64,000 nt of DNA. Source: an uncultured delta proteobacterium (lineage in GTDB: Bacteria; Desulfobacterota; Binatia; JACPRU01). Position 1 is the first letter of the stretch, and each line of letters begins with the position of its first letter. Under the pieces are notes generated by a model that saw nothing but the letters and a program-made list of their open reading frames with translations, did no database searches and was not told where the DNA came from. The stretch covers positions 1 through 64,000 of the forward strand of contig CAVUWD010000011.1 of NCBI GenBank assembly GCA_963745025.1, in the 5' to 3' direction. Made by a program: the position numbers and the translations under genes. Shown one piece after another: positions 1-61,723 of this stretch.

Positions 1-45
1 GATATTGCGTATCTTCCTCGCTCCAAGCTGTCCGTCAGCCGTCAC

Positions 46-861: not shown

Positions 862-917
862 CGGGGACGGATGCGGGCGCGGGTATCAGCCAAGCCGCAG
901 CCGCCGGCCGATAGCCG

Positions 918-3140: not shown

Positions 3141-3150
3141 TCGATCGTCC

Positions 3151-3975
3151 ATGGGTTCATCGACGTCGAACGCGATCTGGTACGTGTACGGCATCGTGCC
3201 GGCGAGCTTCTCGCCCGCGACGCTGCCGGCCGGCCTGGACGACACCGACGTCGCGCTCGAGCGAGGCGACGCACGTCGCCGCGTTGGTGTCGGCGCTTCC
3301 GGCGCTCGCAGTACGCAGCCGCCGACGCTCGAGGCGAACAGCGGCGACGTCGAGTGGCTGAGTCCTCGCGCCGTGGCGCACGATCGCGTGCTCACATGGG
3401 CGAGCGATCTTGGGCCGGTCGTTCCGCTGCCGATGTTCTCGCTGTTCAGCGGACGGCCCGCGGTGCGCGCGATGCTTCGCGACCGCGAGGCGGAGTTGGT
3501 GGCGACGCTCGGGCGCCTCGCCGAGGGGCGCGAGTACGCGTTGCGCGTGTACCGTGTCGACAGCGAGCTGCTGTCGGCGATCTCGACTCTCAGCCCGCGG
3601 CTCGCGGAGCTGGCGGCCACCGCTGCGGCGGCGTCGCCGGGGCAGCGCTACCTGCTCGAGCGAAAGCTCGATGCCGAGAAGAGGAACGAGATGCGAGCCG
3701 TGACGCAGCGTCTCGTCGACGAGATCGCGTCCGCGCTCGGCGCGGCGTCGCTGCAGTCGGTTCGGGTGGCCATTCCGCGCGCCGACGGTGACAGCGCGGC
3801 CCGCGGCGTGATGATTCTCAACGCGGCGTTCCTCGTCGCGCCGGCACGCTTGGAGTACTTTCAGCAAACGCTCACGTCGCTCGTCGAATGCCACGCCGCG
3901 CACGGGCTGCGGTTCGACTTTACCGGGCCTTGGCCACCGTATCATTTCGCGAGCGAGGCCGATCGTGGCGCCTGA
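3151..3975 (+). CDS. gvpL: Gas vesicle protein, GvpL/GvpF family (probably GvpL)
   Basis: WYVYGIV, WLSPRAVAHDRVL, SPGQRYLL, MILNAAFLV, FTGPWPPYHF. Confidence 0.85.
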   Translation: MGSSTSNAIWYVYGIVPASFSPATLPAGLDDTDVALERGDARRRVGVGASGARSTQPPTLEANSGDVEWLSPRAVAHDRVLTWASDLGPVVPLPMFSLFSGRPAVRAMLRDREAELVATLGRLAEGREYALRVYRVDSELLSAISTLSPRLAELAATAAAASPGQRYLLERKLDAEKRNEMRAVTQRLVDEIASALGAASLQSVRVAIPRADGDSAARGVMILNAAFLVAPARLEYFQQTLTSLVECHAAHGLRFDFTGPWPPYHFASEADRGA

Positions 3976-4195
3976 CGACGACGCTGGCATCGACGAGGAG
4001 CAGCTCGTCCTCGGCGATCTGCTCAACCACGTGCTCGACAAGGGTGTCGTGATCACGGGAACGGTCACGATCTCCGTCGCTGATATAGATCTACTCATGC
4101 TCGACCTTCGCCTGTTGCTGACGTCGATCGAGACCGCGATTCGACAACGGCGTCAACCCAACGCTGACACAGCTCGCCTCGCCGCCGGACGGACG
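3965..4195 (+). CDS. GvpA/GvpJ/GvpS-family gas vesicle protein
   Basis: LGDLLNHVLDKGVVITGTVTISVADIDLLMLDLRLLLTSIET is the GvpA-family signature; the 3' end is uncertain because the frame reads through into the next gene. Confidence 0.85.
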
Positions 4196-4562
4196 ATGAC
4201 GACTCATTTGTACTGCGTACTTCCAGATGACACGGGCGACGCGATCCCGCCGGGGTTGAGCGGGCTCGCCGGCGCCCGGGTACGCGCCCTGCCCGTGGAT
4301 GGCCTCGTGGCCTGGGTCAGCGACGTCGCGCGCGACGTCCCGGTCTCGATCGACGAGGTGCGCGCGCACGATGCGGTCGTCGAGGCGGCGCTGGAGACCG
4401 GTTCGACACCCGTGCCGGCGCGCTACGGCCAGCGCTTCGACGACGACGACGCCTGCCGCGCCGCGCTCGCCAATCGCGCCGACTCCGTCGAGTCGCTCGT
4501 CGCCGACATGCAGGGTTTCGTCGAGATGACGCTGATCGTCACGCCGTCGACGCGCCGAGCGA
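4196..4562 (+). CDS. Third GvpL/GvpF-family protein, truncated at a chimeric junction
   Basis: MTTHLYCVL, VRAHDAVVEAAL, PVPARYGQRF, GFVEMTL; similarity stops at ~4560 with no GPWPPY C-terminus. Confidence 0.78.
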
Positions 4563-4586
4563 TCTGCTTCAGACGTTGGTCTTGCT
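4563..4586. other. Chimeric junction 1 with adapter-like remnant
   Basis: The gvp gene and the EamA gene are both cut here; TTCAGACGTTGGTCTTGCT resembles the nanopore adapter end TTCAGTTACGTATTGCT. Confidence 0.6.
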
Positions 4587-5294
4587 CAGCAGATAGGCCA
4601 GCGGCGCCATCGACGCGACCAGCAGCGCATGCCGCCACTGCGCACGTGCCGCCTGCACGAAGGCCGGCAGGTCGTGCAAGGCGGCCGGCATGTGCATGGG
4701 CAGGCGCACTAGGTTGCACAGGCAGACGAAGAGCACCGGCTGGATCGCCAGCACCTTGATGGCATACCCGTCGATGAGCGTGTAGGTGGCGATGCTGAGC
4801 CCGGTGGCCGCGCCCCAACCCAGCCCGGCGAGCACGCGCCGGCGCTGTGCGGCGTCGTGGCTGCGCGCCCAGACCGCCGTGCCACCGGCCACGAGGAAGA
4901 TGCCGGCGACCACCAGCATCAGACCGGCCCCGCCGAGCCAGCTCATGGTTTCGCCCAGCAGCACGAGGGCCCCGAGCGAAGCCAGCAGAGGGCCGGTGCC
5001 GCGCGCCACCGGGTAGACCACGGTGAGGTCGCTCTGCGCATAACCGCGCAGCAAGGTGTGGAAGTAGACGAGGTTGGCCGCGGCACTCGCCACGATGGTG
5101 CACCACTCGCGCCAGCTCCAGCGCGGCACCGTCTCCCAGCCCAGCCACAGACCGAGTGGCGGCGCCAGCACCACCTGGAAGGCCGTGAGCAGCAGCGAGA
5201 AGCGGGCGTCGCCACCGGCCTTCTTCGCAACCACGTTCCAGAGCGCATGCAGCAGCGCCGCGGCAATGACGAGGGCCAGGGCCGGCAGCGACAT
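4587..5294 (-). CDS. EamA/DMT family transporter, 3'-truncated at the junction
   Basis: MSLPALALVIAAALLHALWNVVAKK, DLTVVYPVARGTGP, YTLIDGYAIK; the last helices are missing. Confidence 0.85.
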
Positions 5295-5298
5295 GTGC

Positions 5299-6195
5299 TC
5301 AGCCCAGCGCCAGGCCAGCCACGCCGAGCGGCGATGCACGCCGCGCCGACGATGCGCAGCCCGCGGTCGCCCTCGCCCAGCAGGCGCCCGCCGAGCAGCG
5401 CGGCGAACAGCATCGACACCTCGCGCGCCGGCGCCACGTGCGACAGCGGCGCCATCGTGCACCGCATACAGCACCAGCACGTAGGCCAGCGGGCTGATCG
5501 CCGCGATGCAGCAGCGCGTGCCTCCACTGCGCGCGCCAGGCCTCGGCGCAAGCCGGCGCGGTCGCGCAGCGCGGCCGGCAGCATGAACGGGATGCGCAGC
5601 AGGTTGCCGAAGTAGTCGACCAGCACCGGGCGAGATCAGCAGCACCTTGACCGCGTAGCCGTCGATGACGCGTGTAGCCGGCGATCAGCGCGCCGGTGAG
5701 CGCGCCCCAGCGCAGGCCGGCCAGCGTGCGCTGACGTTGCGCGGCGTCGTGCGACTTGCGCCCACAGGCCGGGCCGCCGGCGATCAGGAACACGCCGCCG
5801 TGCAAACCGCGATCACGCCAGCGGCGCCCAGCGCCGACAGCCGCTCGCCCAGCAGCAGCACCGCCGCGACCGCGGCCAGCAACGGGCCCGCGTGCCGCGC
5901 GCCACCGGGTAGACCACGCGTGAGGTCGGCCTCGCGGTAGCCGCGTCAGCAGCACGGTGAAGTACAGCAGGTGAATGACGGCGCTGCACGAGCAGCCGGC
6001 CCACTCGCGCACGCCCCAGCGCAGCCACTGCGTGCAGACCGAACCACAGCGCGACCGGCGCCCACAGCACGCAGGTGATCAGCACGCTCCATCAGCGCGA
6101 AGTGGTGGTTGCCGCCAGCCTTCTTGGCGGCGACGTTCCACAACGCATGCAGCATCGCGGCAACGAGCACGAGGCTCAGGGCGAAAGGCAGACAT
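5299..6195 (-). CDS. EamA/DMT family transporter (tandem paralog, frameshifted)
   Basis: LHALWNVAAKKAGG, VVYPVARGT, APLSHVAPAREVSMLFAALLGGRLLGE spread across several frames. Confidence 0.85.
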
Positions 6196-6262
6196 GAAGC
6201 CGGCGATTGTGCCGGGTGCGGTCGAGGCCTAGACTGGCTGCAGCTCACTGGACGGAAGCCTC

Positions 6263-6664
6263 ATGCGTGCACTGCTGATCTCGCTGCTGCTGATCTTGGC
6301 CCACACAACGGCCGTGGCCGCGTGCAGCTGCTTCCCGCCCGAAGTGCAGGCGAAGACGGCGCAGGAAGCCCTGCAAAAGGCGCAGGTCGCCGTCTACGGC
6401 CGGGTGCTCACGGTCGATGCGCTCGGCAAGGCCCAGGTGCTGGTGCTGGAGTCGGTTCAAGGGGCCACGCACCGGCGCCACCTTCGCGGCCGACCCGGGC
6501 GCGGGCACCTGCGAGACCCACCCACGTTCACGGTGGGCGAAGAAGCCCTGCTGCTATCGTTCACCGCACCGCTCACGGCCTGCGACAAGCTGCCGCCCGA
6601 CCACTACCTGCTCGACGCCTTCCGCAGCCAGCCGGCCACGCCCGGGCTGGCGATCCAGCGCTAG
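6263..6664 (+). CDS. Secreted protein with N-terminal Cys-Ser-Cys (TIMP/NTR-like)
   Basis: Signal peptide ending AVA-A followed by CSC; VAVYGRV; FTVGEEALL; further Cys residues; a probable compensating frameshift in the middle. Confidence 0.6.
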   Translation: MRALLISLLLILAHTTAVAACSCFPPEVQAKTAQEALQKAQVAVYGRVLTVDALGKAQVLVLESVQGATHRRHLRGRPGRGHLRDPPTFTVGEEALLLSFTAPLTACDKLPPDHYLLDAFRSQPATPGLAIQR

Positions 6665-6695
6665 GCGATATGCACAACCTTGTTCAGGAGACCCC

Positions 6696-7075
6696 ATGTT
6701 CGACCACGTCAAATTCGGCGTCAGCGACTACGCCAGGAGCAAGGCGTTCTTCCTCGAGGCACTCGCGCCTCTCGGGGTGACGGTCGTCTCCGAAGGGTCG
6801 CCGACCTACGGCGTCGAGCTGTGCCAACCCCAGGGCAAGTCTTCGTTGTGCCTGTTCCAGACCGAGGAGAAACCGGCGCACCTTCACGTGGCTTTCGTGG
6901 CCGAGCGCCGCGAGCAGGTCGACGCGTTCCACCACGCGGCGCTGGCGGCAGGCGGCCAGGACCATGGCGCACCCGGTGCCGCGACCCGCACTACCACCCC
7001 AACTACTACGCGGCTTTTGTCCTGGGCCCCGATGGGCACAACATCGAGGTGGTCTGCCACCAGCCCGAGGCCTGA
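6696..7075 (+). CDS. VOC (glyoxalase/bleomycin resistance) family protein, one frameshift
   Basis: MFDHVKFGVSDYARSKAFF, HLHVAFVAE, HYHPNYYAAFVLGPDGHNIEVVCH; AGGAG RBS. Confidence 0.88.
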
Positions 7076-7164
7076 TCTCGGGCCTGCGGAATTCCATGGT
7101 CACCTCGCAGGCATGGCACAGGCCCATACTGAGCCTCACCTACCTCGAACAGGGATCTCACGAA

Positions 7165-7527
7165 GTGCCGACCGTTCTTGCCCTGGGTCTTGACCCTGCC
7201 TGCGTCGAATTGCCCGATGCCCCAAACCTCACGCCACAACTCGTTCAAGCGTTCATCGACAGCCAGCTCGATCGATTGCGTGCGCTGGGCTATGAGGTTC
7301 ACAGTTGTCTGGTTGCCCCCGATCGAGCCGCCGAGGACCTGACCTCTCGCCTGCTTCAGGAGCGCTCATTCGACTGCGTGATGTTCGGCGCCGGCCTTCG
7401 AGCGCCGGCACAACTGCTGCTGTTTGAAAGGCTGCTGAATGTGGTGCACACACAAGCCCCGAACGCAAGACTCTGCTTCAACACGACCCCGGCCGATACC
7501 GCGGAAGCGGTGCAACGCTGGGTCTGA
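7165..7527 (+). CDS. Conserved hypothetical protein
   Basis: Plausible globular sequence with FDCVMFGAGLR, LFERLLNVVH and CFNTTPADTAEAVQRW. Confidence 0.7.
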   Translation: MPTVLALGLDPACVELPDAPNLTPQLVQAFIDSQLDRLRALGYEVHSCLVAPDRAAEDLTSRLLQERSFDCVMFGAGLRAPAQLLLFERLLNVVHTQAPNARLCFNTTPADTAEAVQRWV

Positions 7528-7555
7528 CACGACCGTGGTGCGCCGGTCGAGCGCA

Positions 7556-8605
7556 ATGCCGAAAACGATGAACAGCCCCCTGCTGGTTGAAGTGCTGCGC
7601 GGCACGGCCGTCGAATCGCGCCACACCGGCGCGCTGGCCGTGGTCGATGCCGAGGGCGCCCTGTTGCTGCACCTGGGCGATGTGGACCGGCCCGTCTTTC
7701 CGCGTTCGCCGTGAAGCTGCTGCAGGCCCTGCCACTGGTGGCCAGCGGTGCTGCCGCGCGCCTGGCCTGACCGACGCCGAGATGGCGCTGGCCTGCGCAT
7801 CGCACAACGGCGAGCCGGCCCATGTGCAAACGGCTGCCGGAATGCTGGCCAAGGCCGGGCTCGACGTGCACGCGCTCGAGTGCGGCGTGCACTGGCCGTA
7901 TCACGAAGGCTCGGTGCGTGCGCTCGCGCGCGACGGTGCATCGCCCAGCGCCTTGCACAACAACTGCTCGGGCAAGCATGCGGGCTTCGTGTGCCTCGCC
8001 TGCGCCATGGCCAGCGGGCAAGACGCGCAGGCCTTCGCCCGCGGCTACGTGCAACCCGAGCACCCGGTGATGCGCGAGGTGGGCGCGGCCCTGCAGGCCG
8101 CCACCGGCTTCGACCTCGACACCACGGTGCGTGCCGTCGACGGCTGCTCCATCCCGACCTACGCCATCCCGCTGCGCCGCCTGGCGCTGGCCTTTGCGCG
8201 CGTAGCCACCGGCGTCGGCCTCTCGCCTGAGCATGCACGCGCCGCACGGCGCCTGCGCGAGCCATCGCACGCGAGCCCTTCATGGTGGCCGGCAGCGGCC
8301 GCTTCGACACCCGCGTGATGGAGCGCCTGCGCGAGCGCACCTGCGTGAAGGTGGGCGCCGAGGGCGTCTATTGCGCGGCCTTGCCCGAGCGGGGGCTGGG
8401 CATCGCCATCAAGGTCGACGACGGCAACACCGCGCGCGCCGCCGAGGTGGTGATGGCGTCGCTCATCGAAGCGCTGCTGCCGCTGGACGATGCCGACGCC
8501 ACGTTCATGCGCAGCCTGAGCGAGCCGCGGCTGCGCAACTGGAAGGGGCTGGACGTGGGTGGGCTGCGGCCGGCCGCGGCGCTGCGTGACCTGCACCTCG
8601 TCTGA
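7556..8605 (+). CDS. L-asparaginase II (Rhizobium AnsA-type), frameshifted
   Basis: VESRHTG, FPRS, ACASHNGEP, HNNCSGKHAGF, DGCSIPT, KVGAEGV, KVDDGNTARA. Confidence 0.88.
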
Positions 8606-11372: not shown

Positions 11373-11540
11373 GCGCCGGCCTGCAGGTTCATCGCCCGGC
11401 CACGCTCGCGCAGGCGCTCGCCGTGCTGCACGAGCAGCCGCAGGCAAGGCCCGTGGGCGGCGGCACGGAACTGGTCACGCTCATGCGCAGCGGCCTGGCG
11501 CCCCACACCACGCTCGTGACAATGGCAACGGCGGGCCTGG
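11369..11540 (+). CDS. FAD-binding subunit (YagS/CoxM-like), truncated at junction 2
   Basis: [23 protein letters not shown]; ATGA overlap with the upstream gene; similarity ends at ~11540. Confidence 0.75.
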
Positions 11541-12344
11541 GCGTCGAGATGCTCGGCGCTGTGCTCCCCGCACGAAGCAATCCCCGCCGGTAATCGCGCC
11601 GGCGACGAGGAATGTCCCCGCCTCGATCCGGTCACCGATCACCTCGTGCTCGACGCCATGAAGCTCGGCCACACCCTCGATGCGGATGATCGACGAGCCG
11701 GCGCCGTCGATGCGCGCGCCCATCTTGCCGAGCGCCGCGGCAAGATCCTCGATCTCGGGCTCGCGCGCCGCGTTTTCGATCTCGGTGGTTCCCTTCGCGA
11801 GCGCCGCCGCCATCATCAAGTTCTCGGTGGCGCCCACCGAGGCGATGTCGAGCGCGATCCGCGCTCCGTGAAGCCGGCGGCCGCTCGGCCCGAGCGGCGC
11901 CTCGGCCTCGACGTAGCCGTGGACGATCTCGAGCCGCGCACCCATCTTCTCGAATCCGGCGAGATGGAGATTCACCGGGCGGGCGCCGATCGCGCACCCG
12001 CCAGGCGTGGAAACCCGCGCGCGGCCCTCGCGCGCGAGCAGGGGACCGAGCGTGAGAAACGACGCACGCATGGTTTTCACGAGCTCGTAGGGTGCCTCGC
12101 GGCTGGCGAGATCACGCGCCCGAAGCGTGACGAGGGGACCCTCGGTTTCGCAGCGCTCGACGCCGAGATCCTGAAGCAAGCGCACGGTCGTGCGAATGTC
12201 GGCCAGCGCGGGAACGTTGCGGAACCGGCAGGTTTCGCGTGTGAGCAAGGACGCGAACAAGAGCGGCAGCGCAGAGTTCTTGGAGCCGCTGATCGCGACC
12301 TCGCCCCTCAACCGCCTCCCCCCGCGAACCACGATCCTATCCAC
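11541..12344 (-). CDS. murA: UDP-N-acetylglucosamine 1-carboxyvinyltransferase, 3'-truncated at junction 2
   Basis: [46 protein letters not shown]; about the last third is absent. Confidence 0.93.
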
Positions 12345-24221: not shown

Positions 24222-25872
24222 TTACTCGCTGAGCAGGCCGCGGGCAATCACCTTGAGCTCGAGGATCGGCTTCACGCCCTCGAAGATCGGCAGCACCAGC
24301 GAGTCGACGACGTAGCGACAGATCGAGAACTCTTCGGCGAAGCCCCACCCTCCGTGCAGGAGCTGTCCTTCCTGGGTCACGCGCTGGGCCACGTCGGAAG
24401 CGAAGAGCTTCGCCATGGCCGCCTCGAGCGTCGCCGATTCCGACTCGTCCATGATGCGCGCGGCGGCGTAGGTCAGCTGACGTGCGGCGGCGATGTCCAC
24501 CGCCATCTGCCCGAGCTTCCACTGCGTGAGTTGGAAGTCGCCGATCGGTCGGCCGAACTGCTTTCGCTCGGTCACGTAGGCGGCGGTCTTCTCGAGCGCC
24601 GCCTGCGCGACGCCCGAAGCGCGACCGCCCGTCTGCAGCCGCCCGGCGGCAAAGCCGGCCATCTGCAGGTAGAAGCCCCTGCCCTTCCCCGCGTCACCGC
24701 CGATCAGGTTCTCGGCGGGAACGAAATAGTTCTCGAAGCCGAGCGTATAGGAATGCATGCCTCGATAACCGGGTGTGTGATCGGCCTTGCCGTGAATGGC
24801 TCCGCCGCTCGGCTGAAGCATCTCGAACTCGTGTCCGGTGAAGGGATCCTTTTCGACGATGAGGAGCGAAAGGCCGCGGGCGCCGCTCGATGGATTCGGA
24901 TCGGTGCGCGCGAGCAGTGCGATCACGTCCGCGCGGCCCGCGAACGTGCACCATGCCTTCGCGCCCGTTGATGATCCAGCCCTTCCGCCCGCCGACCTCC
25001 GCAGGCTCGGCGCGGCACTTCACGGAAGCCACGTCGGAGCCGGTGTCGGGCTCGGTAACCGAGATCGCCACCATGAGCTCGCCCGAGGCGATGCGCGGAA
25101 GCCAGGCCTTCTTCTGCTCCGGGGTACCGCCCTGGAGCAGCGCTTTGGTGAGGATCTCTGGCCGCGTAATGAGGCTCCCGGCCGCGGCGAGCGAAGCGGC
25201 GGACAGCTCCTCGGTGGTGATGATCATCACCAGGTTGCCCATGCCGCCCCCGCCGTACTCCTCGGGCACCGACATCCCGAAGTAGCCGAGCTCGGCCATT
25301 TTTCGGATCAGCTCCTCGGGGACGAGTTCGTCCTGCTGGTGAATTCGCTGCGCGATCGGCTCGACCTCGGTCTTGGCAAAGTTGCGCACCGACTCACGGG
25401 ACAGGCGCTCCAACTCTCCGGGCAGCCAGCATTGATTGACCCCGCCGGCGGCGATCACCCGACGGCCGAGCGCCCGCACGCGTTCCTCCGACGCGGCGGC
25501 GCGAACGAGCGCGCGCACCTCGACCGAGTCGAGCGTGTCGTCGAGGAACGCTTCCTTGAAGCCGAAGGTTTCGAGATGCGTCGACACCTGCGCGCGACAG
25601 CGCGCCACCACGTTGGCGGCGAAGATTCCCGCCGCCTCGGCGCCGAGCGGGTCGTCGGCGCCTTCGCCCGCCACGGCGGCCGCGTAATCGGCGAGTGCCT
25701 TGGCGGCGCGGAGCTCGGTCGCGAGATAGCTCACGCGCTCGCTGTGCACCTGATGGTCGTCGATCGCCTTGCCATGGTCGGTCGTCTTGCGGGCGTTTTC
25801 GAGAGCGGCGTCAACGACGCGCTCGAGGGCCGAGATCAGCGTGGTGGCTTCGGAGTGCGGTCGATCCTTCAT
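24222..25872 (-). CDS. mcd: Acyl-CoA dehydrogenase, probably (2S)-methylsuccinyl-CoA dehydrogenase (one frameshift near 24960)
   Basis: About 550 aa with the Mcd-like N-terminal extension (HQ..SYLATEL), GSLITRPEI, TEPDTGSD, LLARTDP, GYRGMHSY, RLQTGGRA; ecm and mcl are nearby. Confidence 0.78.
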
Positions 25873-51752: not shown

Positions 51753-52533
51753 GTGCAGCGAGAAAAAACAAACTACGTCATCCAGTCCGTCGCACACGCT
51801 CTGGACGTTCTCGAACAGTTTTATGGAGAGCTCGACGAGCTCGGCGTGACGGAGCTCAGCAAGCGTCTCAAGCTCCACAAGAACAACGTCTTTCGCCTGC
51901 TCGCGACCCTCGAGTCACGCGGCTACATCGAACAGAACAAGGCGACCGAGAACTACCGCCTCGGGATCCGCTGCCTGCAGCTCGGCCAGACGTACGTGAA
52001 CCAGATGGGGCTGCTCCGCCAGGCACGGCCCATCCTCGAGGACGTGTCTCGCCAGAGCTGCGAAAATGACGTACGTGGCGGTGGCTCGTCGTCAGGCAGT
52101 CGTACCACTCGCCGTCGTCGAAGTCGAAGCTGCCGGTACGTATCGATCTCGAACGTCGGCGAAGCTCTACCGCTTCACTGCGACTGCCGTCGGCAAGGTC
52201 TTCCTCGCCTACGAGTCCGAGGAAGGACTGCGCCACGTTCTCGGCAGCAATCTCGAGAAATTCACCGACAAGACGTTCAATGCGATTCCGGCGCTCAGCG
52301 AGCACCTGAAGGGCGTGGCGGAGCGCGGCGTTGCCGTCGACAACGGCGAGTATCTCGTCGACGTGCGCGCCGTGGCTGCACCGGTGCGTGATTACACCCG
52401 CAACGTCGTCGGCGCGCTCGCGGTCGCGGGGCCGGCCTACCGACTGAGCGCCGATCGCATCGAGAAGGAGATCGTGCCGCTCGTCCAGAAGGCCGGCAAA
52501 GACCTCTCGAGCCGCCTCGGCTTCCACGAATGA
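51753..52533 (+). CDS. IclR family transcriptional regulator (frameshifted)
   Basis: IQSVAHALDVLE, GVTELSKRL, VFRLLATLESRGYI, LPLHC, GKVFLAY, AVAAPVRD. Confidence 0.9.
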
Positions 52534-52590: not shown

Positions 52591-52688
52591 ATGCGGTTGA
52601 TTCGACCCTCGAAACGCGGTAACCACAACCGATTTTGCCGCGCAGGCGCTCTGCCGGCGCCAATTCGCCAACAGGAGGTAGCGACGAG

Positions 52689-53446
52689 GTGAAGATCCTT
52701 GTCCCCGCAAAACGGGTTCCTGATCCAGACTCGATCATCAAGGTGAAGCCGGACGGCTCGGGTATCGTCACCGACAACGTCAAGTGGGTGATCAACCCAT
52801 TCGACGAGATCGCCGTCGAGGAAGCGCCTGCGCATCAAGGAGAAGGTCGCGCGGCACCGAGGTCGTGCTCGTGGCGATCGGCGCCAAGACGTCGCCCAGG
52901 AGCAGCTGCGCACGGGGCTCGCCATGGGCGCCGACCGCGCGATCCTGGTGCTCACCGAGGAACCGCTCGATCCGCTCGCCGTGGCCCGCGTCCTGCAGAA
53001 GCTCGTCGACGACGAGAAGCCCGATCTCGTGCTCATGGGCAAGCAGGCGATCGACGACGACTCGAACTGCGCCGGCCAGATGCTCGCCGAGCTGCTCGGC
53101 TGGCCGCAGGCCACCTTCGCGTCGAAGGTCGAGCTCGCGGCGACCAGAAGAGCGCAGGTCACGCGCGAGGTCGACGGCGGTCTCGAAGACGCTGTCGATG
53201 CCGCTTCCCGCCGTGGTCACCGCGGATCTACGACTGAACGAGCCGCGCTACGCTTCGCTGCCCGGCATCATGAAGGCCCGTAAGAAGGAGCTGAAGGAGA
53301 TCCCCGTCGCCGACCTCGGAGTCGACACCGCGCCGCGGCTCAAGGTGCTGAAGCTGGAGGCGCCGCCGAAGCGGCAAGGCGGCCGCAAGGTCGAGACCGT
53401 GCAGGAGCTGGTGCAGGCGCTCCACTCCGAAGCCAAGGTGATCTGA
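52689..53446 (+). CDS. etfB: Electron transfer flavoprotein beta subunit (frameshifted)
   Basis: [48 protein letters not shown]. Confidence 0.93.
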
Positions 53447-53469
53447 GCCCTTCCGACAGGGGGAATCCC

Positions 53470-54446
53470 ATGGGCAACGTTCTAGTCTTCGCCGAGCATG
53501 TCAACGGCAAGTTCCCGAAGACCACGCTCGTCGGCGATCGCGGCCGGCCGTCAGGCGGCGAGCCGAATCGGTGGGGCGTGTCACGCGGTCGTTCTCGGCA
53601 AGGGCATCGACGCGCGTCGGCGGCGAGGTCGCGGGCTACGGCGTGAAGAAGGTGTTCGTGGTCGACGAACGACGCTCTCGAGCACTACGTCGCCGACGCC
53701 TACACCGAGGCGCTCGCGCAGGTGGTGAAGGACAAGGCGTCGAGCTGCGTGGTCGCCACGGCGACGGCGGTCGGCAAGGACCTGCTGCCGCGCGTCGCTG
53801 CGCGGCTCGGCGCGGGGATGGCGTCGGAGGTCGTCCATCTTCAACGACGCGACGGCACTCTCACGCGCCCGATGTACGCCGGCAACGTGATCGCCACCGT
53901 CAAGCTCGAAGGCTCGCCGCGCGTGGTCGTCGGTGCGCGCAACCGCCTTCGACGCCGCCAAGAAGGACGGCGGCGGCAAGGTGGAGAAGGTCGCGGTCAG
54001 TCTGGATGCGGCGAAGCTCAAGGCCAAGTTCGTGGCGTTCAACGAGACCAAGTCCGATCGCCCGGTGCTGACCGAGGCTTCGATCGTCGGTTTCGGGCGG
54101 ACGCGGCCTCAAGAACGGCGAGAACTTCACCACCTATCTCGAGCCGCTCTGTGACGCGCTCGGCGCCGCCATGGGAGCGAGCCGCGCGGCGGTCGACGCC
54201 GGCTTCGTGCCGAACGATCTTCAGGTCGGCCAGACCGGCAAGGTGGTCGCGCCGACGCTCTACATCGCCGTCGGCATCTCCGGCGCGATCCAGCACCTGG
54301 CCGGCATGAAGGACTCGAAGATGATCGTCGCCATCAACAAGGACGCGGAAGCGCCGATCTTCCAGGTTGCCGACTACGGCCTCGTCGCCGACCTCTTCAA
54401 AGCCGTTCCGGAGCTGACCGAGGAGATCAAGAAGCTGAAGCATTAG
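53470..54446 (+). CDS. etfA: Electron transfer flavoprotein alpha subunit (frameshifted)
   Basis: [51 protein letters not shown]. Confidence 0.93.
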
Positions 54447-54566: not shown

Positions 54567-55349
54567 ATGTCCGAAGTCCTGCTCGTCGAAAAGAGCGAGT
54601 CGATCGCGACCGTCACGCTGAATCGGCCGCGGGCGATGAACGCGCTGTCCCGGGAGCTCCGCCGTGCGTTCGTCGATGCATTCGCCGCGGTCGCGCGCGA
54701 CGATGAGGTCGAGGCGGTCATCCTGACCGGCGCGGGGAGAGCCTTCTGTGCTGGGCTCGACCTCAAGGAGCTCGGCGGAGAGAGCGGACAGGATTCGCGG
54801 CCCGGCGAGGCGATCGCCACTGGCGGCGACCTGATCGGCGCCATGGAGGCGTGCGCGAAGCCGATCATCGGTGCGGTCAACGGTGTGGCCATCACCGGAG
54901 GCTTCGAGATCGCGCTCGCCTGCGACGTGCTCGTCGCATCGCGCGCAACGCGCTTCGCCGACACGCACGCGAGGGTCGGGATCCTTCCCGGCTGGGGGCT
55001 CAGCCAGAAGCTGCCCCGGTTGATCGGCATCTTTCGCGCCAAGGAGCTCTCGCTCACCGGAAATTTCTTGAGCGCCGAGCTGGCGGCTGAGTGGGGTCTC
55101 GTGAATCGGGTCGTCGACCCGGCAGAGCTGCTTTCGACGTGCCGCGCGCTGGCGCGCGACATGATGTCGTGCCATCCCCAGACGATGCGCGCCTACAAGG
55201 CGCTGATCGACCGGGGCTTCGGGATGCCCTTCGCGGATGCGATCCGGCTCGAGCGCGAGACGAGCCTCGAGCACGCCAAACGAGTCCGTCCCGAGGAGAT
55301 CGCAGCCCGCCGCGGTGCCATCCAGAAGCGCGGCCGCCGGCAGAGATGA
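54567..55349 (+). CDS. Enoyl-CoA hydratase/isomerase family protein
   Basis: LNRPRAMNAL, AFCAGLDL, KPIIGAVNGVAITGGFEIALACD, DTHARVGILPGWG. Confidence 0.92.
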   Translation: MSEVLLVEKSESIATVTLNRPRAMNALSRELRRAFVDAFAAVARDDEVEAVILTGAGRAFCAGLDLKELGGESGQDSRPGEAIATGGDLIGAMEACAKPIIGAVNGVAITGGFEIALACDVLVASRATRFADTHARVGILPGWGLSQKLPRLIGIFRAKELSLTGNFLSAELAAEWGLVNRVVDPAELLSTCRALARDMMSCHPQTMRAYKALIDRGFGMPFADAIRLERETSLEHAKRVRPEEIAARRGAIQKRGRRQR

Positions 55350-55512
55350 CCGAGAAGCCGATCTCCACCCGCTTCCGGACGTCGCGGCCGGTTTCGGCCA
55401 TCGCAAGCGGTCGGCGGCGCTCATGCGCTCGCGATAACCCGCGCTCGCTGAGAGCGGGCGCGCAGGGAACGCGTCTTGCTCCATCGCTCGGTCGTCTACG
55501 AGGTGACCGACG

Positions 55513-56532
55513 ATGGAGAGCCGAACGATCTGCACGCTTCAACTGCTGCCCGTAATCCTCGCGCTCGGCGCGATGCTCCCCGGAATCGCCGCCGCCGAGC
55601 GAAAGCCCACACCCACTCCGAAGGCGACGCCGAGCGCGACCGCCACATCAACGCCGCCCGCCTCTCCGACACCCACCCCTCCCCCGGCGGGAGGTCTCAG
55701 CGTCACGATCACCAACCCCGCTCCGGGTGAAACCATCGGCGCCGACCGCTACAACGTTCGCGGTATCTTCCAGGGACCGCCGAATACCGGGCTCACGGTG
55801 AACAACCTGATCGCGTACACCGACGCCGGTCGCTTCATCGCCGACAACGTACCGCTTGCGCCCGATGAAAACACGATCACCGTCGTGGCCACGGCCCCCG
55901 ACGGCACCTCGACGACGGCCGCGGTCACGATCACCGCCTCTGGGGTGCCGCCGAACCCGGCTCTCACCGTGGACGCCTCGAAGGGATTCGCTCCGCTCTC
56001 GGTCACGTTCAACTACACGTTCAGCTCGCCCATCGGGTTCAAGAAGGTGGCCTTGGACTTCGACGGGGACGGCCGCGATGATTTCCGCACGACGAACCCT
56101 GCAGGCCCGTCGGGATCCGTTCAGAATACCTACTCAAGGCCGGGTCTCTATTTGGCCGTGCTCACAATCACCGATAATCAGGGCCACATCCACAAAGCCG
56201 ACATCGGCATTCAGGTCACGACGTTCGACGCCTTGGACGCTCTGTTCCTGAGCGTCTGGAACCGAATGAACGATGCGCTCGTGCGCGGAGACCTCAACGG
56301 GGCGCTCGCGTGTTTGAATTCTCGCGCCCAGGAGAAGTACGCTCGCGTCTTCAACGAACTACTCGTCGACATGCCCGCGATCGTCGGCTCCTATTCGAGT
56401 CCGCAGCGCGTTTCGACCGGAGACAACTACTTCGAGTACGCCATCAATCGCACGATCGATGGCGAGAACCAGATCTTCTTCGCGTACTTGCTGCGGGATG
56501 CCGATGGCGTGTGGCGGATCGACGGCCTGTGA
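55513..56532 (+). CDS. Secreted protein: PT-rich linker, Ig-like domain, PKD domain and C-terminal NTF2-like domain
   Basis: Signal peptide, PTPTP linker, VTITNPAPG..VPLAPDENTITVVAT, GFAPLSVTF..DFDGDG..YSRPGLY, and WNRMNDALVRGDLNGAL..RDADGVWRIDGL. Confidence 0.72.
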   Translation: MESRTICTLQLLPVILALGAMLPGIAAAERKPTPTPKATPSATATSTPPASPTPTPPPAGGLSVTITNPAPGETIGADRYNVRGIFQGPPNTGLTVNNLIAYTDAGRFIADNVPLAPDENTITVVATAPDGTSTTAAVTITASGVPPNPALTVDASKGFAPLSVTFNYTFSSPIGFKKVALDFDGDGRDDFRTTNPAGPSGSVQNTYSRPGLYLAVLTITDNQGHIHKADIGIQVTTFDALDALFLSVWNRMNDALVRGDLNGALACLNSRAQEKYARVFNELLVDMPAIVGSYSSPQRVSTGDNYFEYAINRTIDGENQIFFAYLLRDADGVWRIDGL

Positions 56533-56537
56533 GGGAC

Positions 56538-57146
56538 ATGAAGCGCTGGACGATTACCGGTTTGGTGATTCTCGTGCTCGTTCTAATCGGCTTCTCCACG
56601 TGCGTCTGGGCGCCGCCGGTCTACTGGGGCGAGGCGATACACGGCCGCGTGGTGGACGCCGATACGGGGGGGCCGCTGGAAGGGGTGGTGGTCGTCGCCG
56701 ACTGGAAGCTGCTCGCTGGCGGTTACGGCCACAGTGGACACCTCACTTCCTTGGTCGTTCAGGAAACAGTCACCGACAAGAACGGTGAGTTCGCGTTGCC
56801 GGAATGGGGGCCGAAGATGCGGCCGAGCTTCACGATGCTCGACAAGGCCCCGTGGCTGATTCTGTTCAAGAGTAGCTACGAGCATGGGGCGCTGTGGAAT
56901 GAACAAAGCAGCAATGGATTCGTCAGGCGGTCGGACTGGGACGCTCAGACGGTCAAGTTGAAGCGATTTTCGGGAACTGCGCAGAGGCGGCTCCAAATTC
57001 TGAACCTAGTCTTGTCGCTTTCCGCGTTGCAACCATTGGCCTTACACGAAGTTCTCCGCGAAAGATCTCTCTATTATCGCCTTGACCCCGCGTTGTTTGA
57101 CCATATCGAGCGCCTGCTCAACGAGCCAGAAAGGAGAGAGCCATGA
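56538..57146 (+). CDS. Exported protein with carboxypeptidase-regulatory-like (transthyretin-like) domain; candidate immunity protein
   Basis: Hydrophobic N-terminus, IHGRVVDADTGGPLEGVVVVADW, ETVTDKNGEFALP, LFKSSYE. Confidence 0.72.
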   Translation: MKRWTITGLVILVLVLIGFSTCVWAPPVYWGEAIHGRVVDADTGGPLEGVVVVADWKLLAGGYGHSGHLTSLVVQETVTDKNGEFALPEWGPKMRPSFTMLDKAPWLILFKSSYEHGALWNEQSSNGFVRRSDWDAQTVKLKRFSGTAQRRLQILNLVLSLSALQPLALHEVLRERSLYYRLDPALFDHIERLLNEPERREP

Positions 57147-59224
57147 TCGATAAATGGGTCGTCCTGACGATAGCTCTCGCTATCACTTGCGCCACCCCCT
57201 TGCTGGCATACGATCTAGAAACTCACGCACGCCTTTCGGAAGCGGCCGCAGATGTTTCTTCGCTCAGCACGGCTCTCACGAACCTTCAACTCGGGAGCAA
57301 GTCGCCATTCAGCGTCACTGACATCACTCGACCGAGAGTCAACAAGGGATCGGCCCTCGGCTGGATCTTGGAAGGCGCCGTTCGAGAAGACGGCGAAACG
57401 GAATGCGACGACCGTGTCCGGAATCACTTCTACAATCCATTGAACAACATGGGCTACTCGTTCGGCGCTCTCACAGGGATTTCTTCTCCGCTGTGGGGTC
57501 TCGAGGACCAGCCGGCTGCTCGCCTTCAGGATTTCTCGTACAATGACGCGCGAGAGTACTTCTGGAACGCGCTGCAGGCACGCACGGAGACCGAGCATCA
57601 GCGAAACCTGGCCTTGACCTTCCGTAGCCTCGGCCAGATCATCCATGTGGTGCAGGATGCCGCTCAGCCGCAGCACACCCGCAACGACTCCCACGCCGGC
57701 GTCACCTGCCCGTACACGTTCGGCCTATTGGGTCCGGCAAGCCTCTACGAGGAATACGTGGAAGGCAAGGCGATCGCGGGGAAGCTCAACTATTCGGGCT
57801 ATCCGACCGTGGACCTGCCCAAGCCGCGGGACTTCTGGGACACCGAGGACGGACGCGGCGTGGCCGAGTTCAGCAACCGAAGCTTCGTGACCGTCCGCAC
57901 AAATTTCACCGGCACACCTAACGACGTTCAGCCAGCTCCGGGATTCCCATCTCCCAACGCCGGCGGCGCACGGCTATTCAAGGAGGATGTCCAAACGCTG
58001 ATGCCCGGAACGACGCTCACGGGCGTCATGACGTTCATCGGAACACCGTGGAGCGACAGTTACACGGGCGCCGGCGGCTACAACACACGGACGAGCACGT
58101 ACTCGCTGTTCGCGAGCGATCTCGGCAGGCGGGGATCACCCGTCGAGTACAGCCTGAACACGTTCAATTACGAGAACGCTCAGCAGATCTTGATCCCCCG
58201 CGCGGTCGGCTACAGCGCTGGGCTCCTCAATCATTTCTTTCGCGGCACGCTCGAGATCGCCGCGCCCGACCGGTACGCATACCTCGTAAGTCCGTACTCC
58301 AATAGCGAGGGCAGCTTCACGAAGTTGATGCTGAAGGTGCGCAATACGACGTCCGAGGCGGAGACGGGCACCGGGACGCTTCTGGCGATCGTCCGCTACC
58401 GGGCTGCGAGCGCCTCGAGCCCCTTGCTCTATCCGGGATACGCCATCCTGCGCGAGCCTTCCTACGCGATTTCGGCTCCGCAATCGGGTTCCCTCACGCG
58501 GGATTTTCAGCCGCTGACGTTCGACTTCGCTGCGAGCCCGATCCCAGTCGACGTCGCCGATGTCTCGGTCATGGTGGCATTCCGAGGTCCGCTCTCAAGC
58601 TCCGAATACACGGAGAATGACGCCATCGTATTCGGCGGAAAGGACGTCTACGAGCCGCAGCTGATCAATTTCGGCGACTCGAGCGACTACGACTGCTATC
58701 AAGATGCGCTCTACTACGTCGTGGATCGGCCCTCCTCGCAGCGCGATCTGAACCAGGACGGCCGCCAGGACCTATTCGGCCCGGTCCAGGAAATCGGCGC
58801 CTACGTGCGCCTGCAACCCTATGGTCCGTCGCCGGTCCCGCTCGGTGCTCAAACGGCAAACTACGTCGTCCCCGGCCTCTTCTGGGCGCAGTACGGAAGC
58901 TTCGTCAGCGTCCAGGACCAGGATGGCTACCGCTTCGAGTACGCCTCGCCGGACACTGTGGACGCCTCCACCGGAGGGCACAGGTCGTTCTTCACTGCGG
59001 TAAACTTGCCTCGAAGCATCAATCGCATCGTCGAGCGGGACGGTCAGACGGTCCACGAAGTCGGCGCCTACTCCGCCGTGTCTTATCGCGGCAGCTCTGC
59101 CCCTTTTCACATCAACATGGTCAACGACAACGTCATTCGCAGCCAAACCTGCATCAACGGGCTGCCCTATGTATCTCTGGCGTTCACGGAGGTTGCGGGC
59201 AGCGTCCCCGACACGGCCAACTGA
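57143..59224 (+). CDS. Secreted protein with Zn-dependent phospholipase C/P1-nuclease-like N-terminal domain
   Basis: After the signal peptide: YDLETH, GAVRED, RNHFYNP, LGQIIHVVQDAAQPQH, DSH, SLYEEY, matching the spacing of trinuclear Zn ligands; beta-rich C-terminal half. Confidence 0.7.
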   Translation: MIDKWVVLTIALAITCATPLLAYDLETHARLSEAAADVSSLSTALTNLQLGSKSPFSVTDITRPRVNKGSALGWILEGAVREDGETECDDRVRNHFYNPLNNMGYSFGALTGISSPLWGLEDQPAARLQDFSYNDAREYFWNALQARTETEHQRNLALTFRSLGQIIHVVQDAAQPQHTRNDSHAGVTCPYTFGLLGPASLYEEYVEGKAIAGKLNYSGYPTVDLPKPRDFWDTEDGRGVAEFSNRSFVTVRTNFTGTPNDVQPAPGFPSPNAGGARLFKEDVQTLMPGTTLTGVMTFIGTPWSDSYTGAGGYNTRTSTYSLFASDLGRRGSPVEYSLNTFNYENAQQILIPRAVGYSAGLLNHFFRGTLEIAAPDRYAYLVSPYSNSEGSFTKLMLKVRNTTSEAETGTGTLLAIVRYRAASASSPLLYPGYAILREPSYAISAPQSGSLTRDFQPLTFDFAASPIPVDVADVSVMVAFRGPLSSSEYTENDAIVFGGKDVYEPQLINFGDSSDYDCYQDALYYVVDRPSSQRDLNQDGRQDLFGPVQEIGAYVRLQPYGPSPVPLGAQTANYVVPGLFWAQYGSFVSVQDQDGYRFEYASPDTVDASTGGHRSFFTAVNLPRSINRIVERDGQTVHEVGAYSAVSYRGSSAPFHINMVNDNVIRSQTCINGLPYVSLAFTEVAGSVPDTAN

Positions 59225-59233
59225 GGTGACGAC

Positions 59234-59596
59234 ATGAACTCACGAGCTCTCCAACTAATGGCTCTCGCCCTTTGTGCGGCCGCTGCGGGCGACGCCCGAG
59301 CCCGCCTCTCCTACGTCGGTCCCGGACGGGCCACCGCCACGGCCGTGATCGACGACTCGGAGCGCGGCATGCGGGAGATTCGCCCCGGCGACGTGCTGCC
59401 GGACGTCGGCGAGCTACGCGAAATCGACGAACACGAGATCGTCTTCGACCGTCCGCTGAGCGACGAAGAGCGAGAGCGATGGCGGGCAGCCGGCGGTATC
59501 GTACCGGACATCCAACGCTTGCACCTCTACCGCCGCCCCACACCCGAAAACGAATCGACCCCCGGCTCCGGCGCGGCGGCGATCACCGCCGACTGA
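59234..59596 (+). CDS. Small exported protein resembling the GspC-HR/PilP beta-fold
   Basis: Signal peptide, TAVIDD..GMREIRPGDVLPDVGELREIDEHEIVF; GAGGTG RBS. Confidence 0.55.
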   Translation: MNSRALQLMALALCAAAAGDARARLSYVGPGRATATAVIDDSERGMREIRPGDVLPDVGELREIDEHEIVFDRPLSDEERERWRAAGGIVPDIQRLHLYRRPTPENESTPGSGAAAITAD

Positions 59597-59610
59597 ACCC
59601 GACGTTCGCC

Positions 59611-61711
59611 TCACGTCGACTTCGCCGTCGTCACCCGATCGACGATCTCCATGACGTCGAGCGTCTGGACCTTCTCCTCGAGGTCCTTCGCCTTGATGCC
59701 GTCGGAGAGCATCGTCATGCAGAACGGGACACGAGACGGCGATCGACCTCGGGATCGGTCTCCAGCGCCTGGTCGGTGCGCAGGAGGTTCACGCGCTTGT
59801 CGGGATCCTCCTCGATCCACATGCGGCCGCCGCCGGCGCCGCAGCACATGCCGAAGTGCTTGTGGCGCTGCATCTCCGCCACGCTCGGCGCCCGGCCTTC
59901 GCCAGCACGTCGCGCGGCTCGTCGTACACGTCGTTGAAGCGGCCGTAGTAGCAGGAGTCGTGGTACGCGGTCCGCTTCCCGAACTCGCCGGTCGACGCTC
60001 GAGCCTGCCGCGGTCGATCAGCTGCTGCACGAGCTCGGCCGCGTGGATCACCTCGTAGTCGCCGCCGAACTGCGGGAACTCGTTCTTGATCGTGTTGAAG
60101 CAGTGCGGGCAGTTGACGATGATCTTCTTCACGCTGTAGCCGTTGAAGCGTCTCGACGCACGTCTGCGCCATCGTCTGGTAGAGGTACTCGTTGCCGAGG
60201 CGGCGCGCCGTCTCGCCGTTGCACGGCTCCTCCTTGGCGAGGCAGGCGAAGTCGACGCCCGCCTTCTGGAGGATCTCGCGCGAACGCCTGCGTGGTCTTC
60301 TTGTTGCGGTCGTCGAAGGCGCCCGCGCAGCCGACGTAGTAGAGGTACTCGGCGTCCGGCTTGTCGGCGAGCGTCGGGATGTCGAGGCCCTCGGCCCAGT
60401 CGAAGCGCTTCTCGGCGCCGATGCCCCACGGGTTCGACTGCGTCTCCATGCCCTTGAAGACGCGCGTCGAGCTCGCTCGGGAAGCGCGCCTCCTCCTGCA
60501 CGAGGTGACGGCGCATGTCGACGATCTTGTCGACGTACTCGATCATCACCGGGCACGCCTCCTCGCAGGCGCGGCACACGTTGCAGGACCAGAGCGACCT
60601 CGTCCTCGATCGACCGGGCCGACGATGTTCTCGCCCACCTCGGGCGGCTCGGCGCCGTCGCCGTTGCCCTTCCAGCCGACCCGCTTCTCGATGACCTCGT
60701 CCTGGTGCTCGTAGAGGTAGTCGCGCAGATCGAGGAGCAGCTGGCGCGGCGCGAGCGGCTTGCCCGGTCGCGGTCGCCGGGCATTGCGACGAGCAGCGGC
60801 CGCACTCGGTGCAGCTGAACATGTCGAGCACCTGCTTCCAGGTGAACTGGTCGATGTGCGAGGTGCCGAAGCGCGTGGCGTTCTCGAGGTCCTGCTTCGA
60901 GAGCTGCGCCGATCGGCTCGAGCTTCTTGAAGAACACGTTCGGGAGCGAGGTGATGATGTGGAAGTGCTTCGACGAGCGGCAGGAGGTTCAGGAACATCA
61001 GGATGCACGCAGGTTGTGCACCCACCACGCCACGCCGCCGAGCGTAACGCGCCGCCGAGGCACCGAGCAGCGAAGCGAGAGTCGACCCGACGAGGTGCGA
61101 CACCGGCTCCCACGCGGCCTCGGCGAGGACGCTCGGATCCTCTCCGTGGGCGACGATGCGACCGCCGTCGTAGACGAGCCCGCCGACCATGATCGTCCCG
61201 ATGAAGGAGAGGATCAGATAGGCCTCCCAGTGGGACTGCCCTCGCAGTCGGTGCTCCGGCGGCTCGTATCCATAGAGGCGCGCCGGATGGGTGATGCCCC
61301 AGCGCACCAGCGCAACGGCGATCCCTGACGAAGACGAGCACCTCCATCGATGTCGCGTAGCAGCATGTAGGGGCCGCCGAGGAGCCCGGGAGAGAACAGC
61401 GGCACGTAGAAATGGTCACTGTAGGCGCGCCCGAACATCGTGACGACCTGCAGGCCGAGAATCGTGAAGCCCCAGAAGATGAAGAAGTGCATCCATCCCG
61501 CCGTTTGCTCGCTGACGATCGCCGCCTCGGGTCGTATGAACTTCTTCTGTCCGAATGCGTAAACCAGCATGGCTTGGATGCGCTCGGCGATGCGGTCGAA
61601 GCGCTCCGCCGGCGCCGCGGCCCGGAGAACCTTGAAACGGCCCCAGAGCTGATAGACAAAGAGACCGAGGGCGGCGACGACGCAGGAGCTGAATACGATC
61701 GAAGTGAGCAT
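59611..61711 (-). CDS. Membrane-bound Fe-S oxidoreductase with CCG domains (FadF/EtfD/HdrD-like), frameshifted
   Basis: Membrane part MHFFIFWGF..HII, CTECGRCSSQCP, CNVCRACEEACP, NPWG, YYVGCAG, CPHC, YHDSCYYGRFN, CCGAGGG. Confidence 0.85.
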
Positions 61712-61723
61712 AGGTCCTCCGAA

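Follow-up and report, generated by a model that had tools for sequence, protein, structure and literature searches.

The DNA analyzed here is a 64,000-nt stretch of a contig from an uncultured delta proteobacterium of the Binatia (GenBank assembly GCA_963745025.1, contig CAVUWD010000011.1, positions 1 to 64,000; referred to below as the window), and our subject is a cassette of four co-oriented genes on its plus strand, g1 to g4. The third gene, g3, encodes a protein with a Zn-phospholipase C-like fold, one of a very large family that lacks annotation and falls under the Zn-phospholipase C/P1-nuclease fold; in related loci it is nearly always accompanied by g1 and g2. The four open reading frames (ORFs) are g1 (55513 to 56532; 339 aa), g2 (56538 to 57146; 202 aa), g3 (57143 to 59224; 693 aa), and g4 (59234 to 59596; 120 aa). 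The longest ORF covering g2 opens at a GTG at 56310; we chose the ATG at 56538, which agrees with homologues. Direct reading of the sequence bore out the gene order and spacing given in a preliminary description of this DNA: g1 and g2 are separated by 5 nt (TGA-gggac-ATG), the g2 stop codon overlaps the g3 start codon in an ATGA, and 9 nt separate g3 from g4 (TGA-ggtgacgac-ATG). A Shine-Dalgarno-like purine-rich stretch lies upstream of each of the four starts, and all four genes are full-length relative to their orthologues. Promoter and terminator scans of positions 55200 to 59800 returned counts no better than chance.

The preliminary description also assigned export signals to all four products and called the middle genes A/T rich. 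At each N terminus, the most hydrophobic 12-residue stretch of the protein (Kyte-Doolittle values of 2.2 to 3.4, compared with at most 1.8 elsewhere in g1 to g4) comes after one or two basic residues; judged from these features, all four proteins are probably exported, and the cleavage sites given below are predictions of the same kind. GC content was 0.588 in g2, 0.613 in g3, and 0.634 in g1, compared with 0.666 for the window, and GC at third codon positions (GC3) was 0.74 to 0.81 across these three genes (0.74 to 0.77 in g2 and g3), compared with 0.82 to 0.89 in four flanking metabolic genes. The A/T shift is real but modest.

We examined g3 by sequence, profile, and structure comparison. 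As a single sequence it matched nothing among PDB sequences, no Pfam family at an E value of ≤1, and no NCBIfam model. An AlphaFold2 model built with 68 relatives in the alignment had a predicted local distance difference test score (pLDDT) of 92.2 and a predicted template modeling score of 0.89. Behind a predicted signal peptide (residues 1 to 22; nt 57143 to 57208), the model shows a helical catalytic domain with inserted beta-hairpins (residues 23 to ~375; nt 57209 to 58267) followed by two beta-sandwich domains (residues ~376 to 693; nt 58268 to 59221). Using Foldseek against the PDB, we obtained matches with a probability of 1.00 to the alpha-toxins of Clostridium perfringens and C. absonum, Bacillus cereus PC-PLC, and Listeria PlcB (entries 1kho, 1olp, 2wxt, 1ca1, 2ffz, 8cqm, and 1ah7), and the C-terminal half of g3 resembled transglutaminase beta-barrel domains. 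A profile of the g3 family searched against PDB sequences retrieved PlcB (E value of 1.2e-5) and PC-PLC (about 1e-3), and it aligned HFYNP, H168...D172.....H178, and Y202-E203 of g3 with HFY[ND]P, H..D.....H, and YE of both enzymes.

The metal-ligand pattern that had been read from the sequence at the outset, TH..ED..NHFY..HxxQDxxxPxH..H..YE, is present in g3 (T27-H28, E82-D83, N94-H95-F96-Y97, H168..Q171-D172..P176..H178, H184, and Y202-E203) and near-invariant among the 68 relatives; together with the confident model and the Foldseek matches, it bears out the proposal that g3 has the fold of a Zn-phospholipase C. Phospholipases C hold their zinc ions with nine ligands, namely, residue 1, five His residues, two Asp residues, and one Glu residue. 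Eight residues of g3 that align with or neighbor these ligands are conserved: when gapped rows of the 68-sequence alignment were set aside, H28 was present in 63 of 63 sequences and H168 in 67 of 67, and D83, H95, D172, H178, H184, and E203 were each found in 67 of 68. H28 and D83 stand where ligands would be expected. By tblastn, all eight residues were kept in 58 of the 65 loci (described below) in which all eight positions were aligned; the departures in the other seven may be alignment slips. Several Arg residues, including R91 and R180, are also invariant. The predicted leaders of g3 and its relatives end in Ala, with Y[DE]xxTH next, and Tyr23, the putative first mature residue of g3, is Tyr in 61 of 63 nongap rows and Phe in the other two. 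In the known enzymes, the first mature residue belongs to the active site. The PlcB structure paper (PMC10576769) describes the positioning of W1 as crucial and reports that the W1F variant keeps activity and that one extra N-terminal residue abolishes it. The conserved aromatic residue that directly follows the leader would thus suit an enzyme whose competence depends on export.

The comparison with characterized Zn-dependent phospholipases C (PF00882; PC-PLC, PlcB, and alpha-toxin) revealed both likeness and distance. g3 shares with them the all-helical fold, the aligned motifs, and a predicted aromatic residue 1, and, like alpha-toxin, it has a catalytic domain followed by a beta-sandwich. 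However, its catalytic domain is about 350 aa long and carries the inserted hairpins, whereas that of the known enzymes is about 245 aa; residue 1 is predicted to be Tyr rather than Trp; its hosts are diderm environmental bacteria; and it has two conserved partner genes. Moreover, g3 does not match PF00882 at an E value of ≤1, and only 1 of the 68 relatives does so (E value of 3.6e-4). By fold and motif g3 thus resembles a Zn-phospholipase C, but it lies outside the curated family.

The preliminary description had likened g3 to Zn-phospholipases C and P1 nucleases together. S1/P1 nucleases (PF02265) have the same superfamily fold and tri-metal logic. The spacing from Y23 to H28 in g3 equals what we take to be the W1-to-H6 spacing of P1 nuclease and is shorter than the spacing we take to be that of PC-PLC. 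Nevertheless, no S1/P1 nuclease appeared among the g3 Foldseek matches listed (ranks to 50, with gaps) or among the family-profile matches to the PDB at an E value of ≤10, and no sequence match was obtained. A further divergent branch, Het-C/Tox-HET-C, occurs in secreted toxin contexts and is predicted by Zhang et al. (2012; PMC3482391) to have the phospholipase C/S1-P1 fold and active site. The Het-C motif given there is HxxxDxxxH, whereas g3 has HxxxDxxxxxH, as in phospholipase C; in addition, g3 had no Het-C Pfam match, and no polymorphic-toxin architecture was seen at the cassette.

Relatives of g3 are numerous. A word-indexed search found 285 proteins at an E value of ≤0.001 among scored candidates, and every name given among the 120 listed was “hypothetical protein.” An exhaustive search found 4,115 representative clusters at an E value of ≤0.001, of which 820 reached ≤1e-30. 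Relatives share the first ~375 residues of g3, and their C-terminal modules differ, with examples such as BNR/sortilin, NHL, or RCC1 propellers, or are absent altogether; relatives with other C-terminal domains still have g1 and g2. This distant branch of the Zn-phospholipase C fold is a very large family lacking a model in the copies of Pfam and NCBIfam that were searched. A limited full-text literature collection contained no paper on the g3 family or on the g1-g2-g3 trio.

To place the cassette in context, we took the best 80 of 255 g3 relatives in species-representative genomes as loci (designated L001, L002, and so on) and searched the translated loci with profiles. All 80 are metagenome-assembled genomes, from Binatia, Rokubacteria, Nitrospirota, Acidobacteriota, Myxococcota, Methylomirabilota, and many Proteobacteria. 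Synteny was counted over the 65 loci with at least 1,700 nt upstream of g3. g1 was present in all 65 and g2 in 59, in the same order and on the same strand; 58 loci had g1-g2-g3 on one strand, 6 had g1 and g3 only, and L004 had all three with g1 frameshifted. The expectation that the same quartet would recur elsewhere was not borne out, inasmuch as g4 stood beside the trio only in the four closest of the 80 loci, L001 to L004, and the trio was widespread; the quartet is therefore clade specific, and g1-g2-g3 is the conserved unit. Clustering of ORFs over the loci gave no further cluster in more than five loci besides antisense ORFs of g1 or g3, and the Pfam content of 93 flanking ORFs (12 ORFs longer than 1,000 aa were left out) was heterogeneous.

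The partner encoded by g1 is an immunoglobulin (Ig)-like and PKD domain protein, as the preliminary description had it. A predicted signal peptide (residues ~1 to 28) and a Pro/Thr-rich linker (residues ~29 to 60) precede an Ig-like domain (residues 64 to 142; nt 55702 to 55938; Pfam Glucodextran_B, E value of 6.2e-7, 29.7 bits, exceeding the cutoff of 27) and a PKD domain (residues 157 to 228; nt 55981 to 56196; Pfam PKD_4, E value of 4.5e-4, 20.7 bits, under the cutoff of 27). A profile of 49 g1 homologues matched the ColH PKD domains (E value of 1.4e-7) and glucodextranase (7.4e-6) in the PDB. The remainder is a conserved C-terminal domain of ~105 aa (residues 232 to 339; nt 56206 to 56529) that had no relative in the PDB or Pfam; in the ESM Atlas, where the best scores were 0.83 to 0.85, a lead with a score of 0.83 hints at an NTF2-like fold. 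Among relatives, the N-terminal Ig part varies by 0 to more than 1,500 extra residues, and the last ~285 residues of g1 are always retained at the C terminus.

The product of g2 begins with a hydrophobic export or anchor segment containing Cys22, followed by a putative carboxypeptidase-regulatory-like (transthyretin-like) beta-sandwich (residues 34 to 89; nt 56637 to 56804) and then a helical C-terminal part. The beta-sandwich assignment comes from a weak Pfam match (CarboxypepD_reg, E value of 4.1e-5, 24.3 bits, under the cutoff of 32.3), and 31 of 48 g2 homologues weakly matched the same family at an E value of ≤0.01 (best, 3e-6; all under the cutoff). A relaxed lipobox was found in 22 and a strict one in 12 of the 48 homologues; the F-S-T-C of the window is noncanonical. 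No relative was found in a search of PDB sequences, and in the ESM Atlas g2 fell among unnamed clusters, one of which carried CarboxypepD_reg on 18% of its members.

Genes g2 and g3 are translationally coupled: the ATGA of the window, which had been taken as a sign of tight coupling, is representative, with a 4-nt overlap at 44 of 64 g2-g3 junctions. Pairwise distances between g2 proteins followed those between g3 catalytic domains (r of 0.85 over 31 loci and 465 pairs), compared with an r of 0.64 for g1-g3 and 0.67 for g1-g2, all three values being inflated by shared ancestry. g2-g3 pairs are duplicated as units in six loci. At least two g2 copies occur in 17 of 62 g2-bearing loci, two of which probably have split genes; g2 is found in tandem before g3 (GGGP) in L030 and L033, and an extra g2 follows g3 in five loci. 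The arrangements seen in individual loci comprise a single g1 followed by g2-g3 repeats (GPGP or GPGPGP) or by two to three g2 copies before g3 (L008, L009, L041, L042, L065, and L075; L030, L033, L050, and L072), and the first of the g3 copies in L009 consists of the catalytic domain by itself (439 aa).

We hypothesize that the cassette is a chromosomal operon encoding an extracytoplasmic, phospholipase C-like metallo-phosphodiesterase together with dedicated envelope partners, a reading that we rank first and to which we give slightly less than an even chance. According to this hypothesis, Sec export and cleavage of the signal peptide would leave Tyr23 as residue 1, with a free amino group to complete the metal site, the part played by Trp1 in the known enzymes; in that case, g3 would gain activity only once outside the cytoplasm. 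In relatives, propellers take the place of the two C-terminal beta-sandwiches, which may target a substrate or surface. g2, often a predicted lipoprotein, would bind the catalytic domain, either to anchor it or to inhibit it for self-protection, and g1 would serve as a scaffold whose Ig stalk varies and whose C-terminal head stays constant. As substrate, a phospholipid head-group ester seems likelier than nucleic acid. Two operon-encoded pairs offer a comparison: the serralysin AprA with its periplasmic inhibitor AprI/Inh, and Pseudomonas aeruginosa PlcH with its chaperone PlcR. Like g3 and g2, each pair places an exported hydrolase beside a small exported partner on one transcript; the protein families are unrelated.

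Several observations weigh against this hypothesis. The ninth canonical zinc ligand of the phospholipases C, which we take to be the His four residues before the Glu ligand, aligns with Ala199 of g3 and is thus absent; g3 has in addition an invariant HTRNDSH motif, and our guess is that H184 within it may replace the missing His. Six of the 65 loci lack g2 (no search was made for a copy elsewhere in those genomes), and the g3 proteins of these loci look intact, with 10 of 10 checked catalytic positions conserved in L003, L031, L047, and L067 and 8 of 10 aligned in L054 and L062; a g2-g3 complex is therefore not obligatory everywhere. Tandem g2 copies look like immunity arrays. Finally, 48 of 54 loci have a cassette with less GC than the DNA on either side (mean difference, -4.4 points), transposase or integrase genes occur among the flanking ORFs (5 of 93; L009, L042, L057, L059, and L070), and the tree has some cross-phylum neighbors, for which binning errors are possible. 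These last three features make horizontal spread over longer times likely.

Ranked second is a toxin-immunity module, in which g3 would be a membrane-damaging effector acting against bacteria or eukaryotes and g2 its cognate periplasmic immunity protein, with no claim of mobility; we consider this unlikely. The predicted export of g2, its frequent lipobox, and its place directly upstream of g3 with overlapping reading frames would suit an immunity protein, but g2 is missing from loci with intact catalytic residues and is shortened to 128 aa in L002. The distances of g2 follow those of the catalytic domain, as expected of a cognate pair, yet g2 shows no hypervariability, since over 57 loci g1, g2, and g3 all had a median of 33% identity to their counterparts in the window. 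Co-duplication of g2 with g3 and the tandem or extra g2 copies point toward immunity, as does the presence of a cytolytic toxin among the closest solved folds, and an enzyme activated by leader removal would presumably need neutralizing in the periplasm. However, delivery genes, whether of type VI secretion, Rhs, contact-dependent inhibition, or another system, are not a recurrent feature of the cassette surroundings in the loci; PADLOC found no defense family, and Pfam gave no toxin or immunity family. In 1 of the 68 relatives, another domain has a weak Tli3 match. In addition, this explanation gives no role to the invariant partner g1. An immunity role for g2, toward which the evidence points both ways, is possible but unproven.

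In the third-ranked explanation, which we regard as quite unlikely, g3 would act like an S1/P1 nuclease on extracellular nucleic acids or other phosphodiesters, scavenging phosphate or carbon, and g1 and g2 would hold it at the cell surface. The shared superfamily fold and metal-site logic and the P1-like Y23-H28 spacing are compatible with such an activity, but the Foldseek matches listed and the profile matches at an E value of ≤10 included phospholipases C only, and Pfam S1-P1_nuclease was unmatched at an E value of ≤1. The invariant R91 and R180 could bind phosphates, the propeller or Ig binding modules of relatives are typical of surface enzymes, and the hosts are free-living in soil, groundwater, and sediment, according to record titles; no phosphate-regulon gene, however, recurs beside the cassette among the flanking ORFs.

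The last explanation centers on g4 and on the earlier suggestion that the cassette is a mobile toxin module that brings its own secretion adaptor. g4 has a predicted N-terminal signal peptide, a small beta-sandwich core in its model (residues 25 to 100; nt 59306 to 59533), and a disordered C-terminal tail; the AlphaFold2 pLDDT was 77 overall and about 90 over residues 31 to 100. Consistent with the PilP/GspC-HR-like fold previously ascribed to g4, PilP chains were the top six and the ninth Foldseek matches (probability of 0.98 to 1.00; TM score to target of 0.37 to 0.65). The leading PilP matches had a probability of 1.00, TM scores of 0.43 to 0.65, and E values of 5.5e-3 to 0.2, none reaching ≤0.001, and the g4 core superposed more weakly on GspC (3oss_C; probability of 0.72). 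Sequence comparisons gave no sign of kinship: no Pfam family was matched at an E value of ≤1 (PilP PF04351 and GspC PF11356 included), a g4 profile found nothing relevant among PDB sequences, and hhalign of that profile with the PilP of L028, itself a Pfam PilP at an E value of 1.3e-52, returned a probability of 0.6%. The leader Cys is not conserved among g4 orthologues, which have no conserved lipobox or anchor and no transmembrane segment past the signal peptide, and the window contains no secretin, type II secretion, or type IV pilus gene, including pilMNOQ or gsp neighbors; the secretion-adaptor claim is accordingly not supported. The g4 family comprises 42 members, all of about 120 aa, unnamed, and without a Pfam domain. 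g4 is a lineage-specific addition to the trio and, with its PilP-like fold, may be a clade-specific accessory.

A link between the cassette and type II secretion as a general feature was considered and rejected. gspG-gspF-gspE lies divergent to the cassette in L018 (positions 1 to 3099, with a cohesin-domain gene between) and L039 (337 to 3676) only, and these count as one observation because the two genomes are near-identical, with proteins 91 to 95% identical. In a single case, L028 (532 to 6114), aroK and an entire pilM-N-O-P-Q operon precede the cassette.

The flanks of the cassette speak against its having moved recently in this lineage. The upstream side has an enoyl-CoA hydratase (ECH_1, E value of 7.5e-53) and electron-transfer flavoprotein (ETF) fragments, in agreement with the fatty acid metabolism flank (etfBA-ech) named in the preliminary description, albeit with ETF in pieces. 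Downstream, on the minus strand, is a 770-aa ORF with 4Fe-4S motifs (59611 to 61923). L001 to L004, whose g3 proteins are 39 to 58% identical to that of the window, have the same genes on the downstream side (Fe-S protein, DUF192, carboxyltransferase, and biotin carboxylase), and L001 and L003 have the upstream hydratase as well. In the tree, the window clusters with L001 to L003 (Shimodaira-Hasegawa-like approximate likelihood ratio test support of 99). No tRNA gene and no mobility gene was found in the window, and flanking-repeat searches around the cassette gave only short imperfect matches. Because relatives at this distance have the same flanks, the cassette was inherited vertically here and is not a recent island, so the description of it as a mobile module is not supported for this genome.

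Searches of phage records gave no cassette match, and plasmid records gave one fragmentary match, L081 (NZ_CP035703.1), a 17-kb record from Pseudolysobacter antarcticus in which fragments of g1, g2, and g3 lie at 3607 to 7639 in the usual order but broken up. The fragments are annotated as hypothetical and lie near a phage-integrase-like gene; this was the only match from a cultured organism among the collections searched.

A model in which g3 is docked to a secretin by g4 and all four genes travel between genomes together is therefore very unlikely: the PilP-like fold of g4, the GC deficit and mobile-gene neighbors of some loci, the degraded Pseudolysobacter copy, and the gspG-F-E neighborhood of L018 and L039 can be cited for it, but g4 is limited to one clade and a small family without an anchor or sequence kinship to PilP, the window offers no secretin or pilus partner, the two gsp loci count once, the flanks are conserved in L001 to L004, and the window has no tRNA gene and no meaningful flanking repeat.

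Some loci stand out individually in base composition or tree placement. In L047, L049, L067, and L051 the cassette lies 9 to 16 GC points under its flanks (0.461 versus 0.611 in L047), far beyond the difference in the window. L011 and L012, from Acidobacteriota and Methylomirabilis bins, have near-identical catalytic domains on branches of 0.12 and 0.20, and L075 and L031, one from a bin labeled Halobacteria archaeon and the other from a Hyalangium bin, are placed within Proteobacteria; these placements could reflect recent transfer or misbinning.

Returning to the operon of an exported enzyme with envelope partners, we propose a broader formulation that we hold only tentatively and consider somewhat improbable as a whole: that the trio is an undescribed, widespread three-component envelope system of uncultured diderms built on a new Zn-phospholipase C-fold family, in which leader removal would switch g3 on, a coevolving lipoprotein would check or hold it, and a stalk of Ig repeats would display it. 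The substrate would decide whether it is a new surface machine for harvesting phospholipids or phosphodiesters or a new Sec-dependent toxin-immunity system. Zn-phospholipases C are virulence factors of Gram-positive bacteria, and, to our knowledge, the fold has so far been characterized almost only in Gram-positive toxins. A 2023 structural paper (PMC10576769) states that homologues had until then been known from Bacillus and Clostridium only. If the partners regulate or anchor g3, three “hypothetical” gene families would gain a function, and the system would reveal how an enzyme that acts on membranes is managed by diderm bacteria while it is being exported. The trio is compact and self-contained and could lend itself to heterologous expression.

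Elsewhere in the window, a number of ordinary genes are broken up between reading frames or carry their domains in the wrong order (7587 to 8605, 11481 to 12344, 24694 to 25872, 51753 to 52533, and 52635 to 54309). Asparaginase II occupies two ORFs, 5-enolpyruvylshikimate-3-phosphate (EPSP) synthase covers only 1 to 261 of 417 profile positions, ETF is in pieces, an acyl-CoA dehydrogenase is also broken, and the helix-turn-helix and C-terminal parts of an IclR protein lie in different frames. This pattern suggests assembly indel errors or pseudogenes. The 770-aa Fe-S ORF downstream of the cassette has unusual codon-position GC values (0.64, 0.69, and 0.66 at positions 1, 2, and 3), and plus-strand ORFs inside 59611 to 61923 show coding-like GC3; yet a minus-strand ORF of 691 to 693 aa is conserved in L001 to L003. 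Near the start of the window, positions 344 to 4759 hold a gas-vesicle cluster with GvpL/GvpF three times, GvpG, a GvpA-like domain, and an ArsA-like ATPase.

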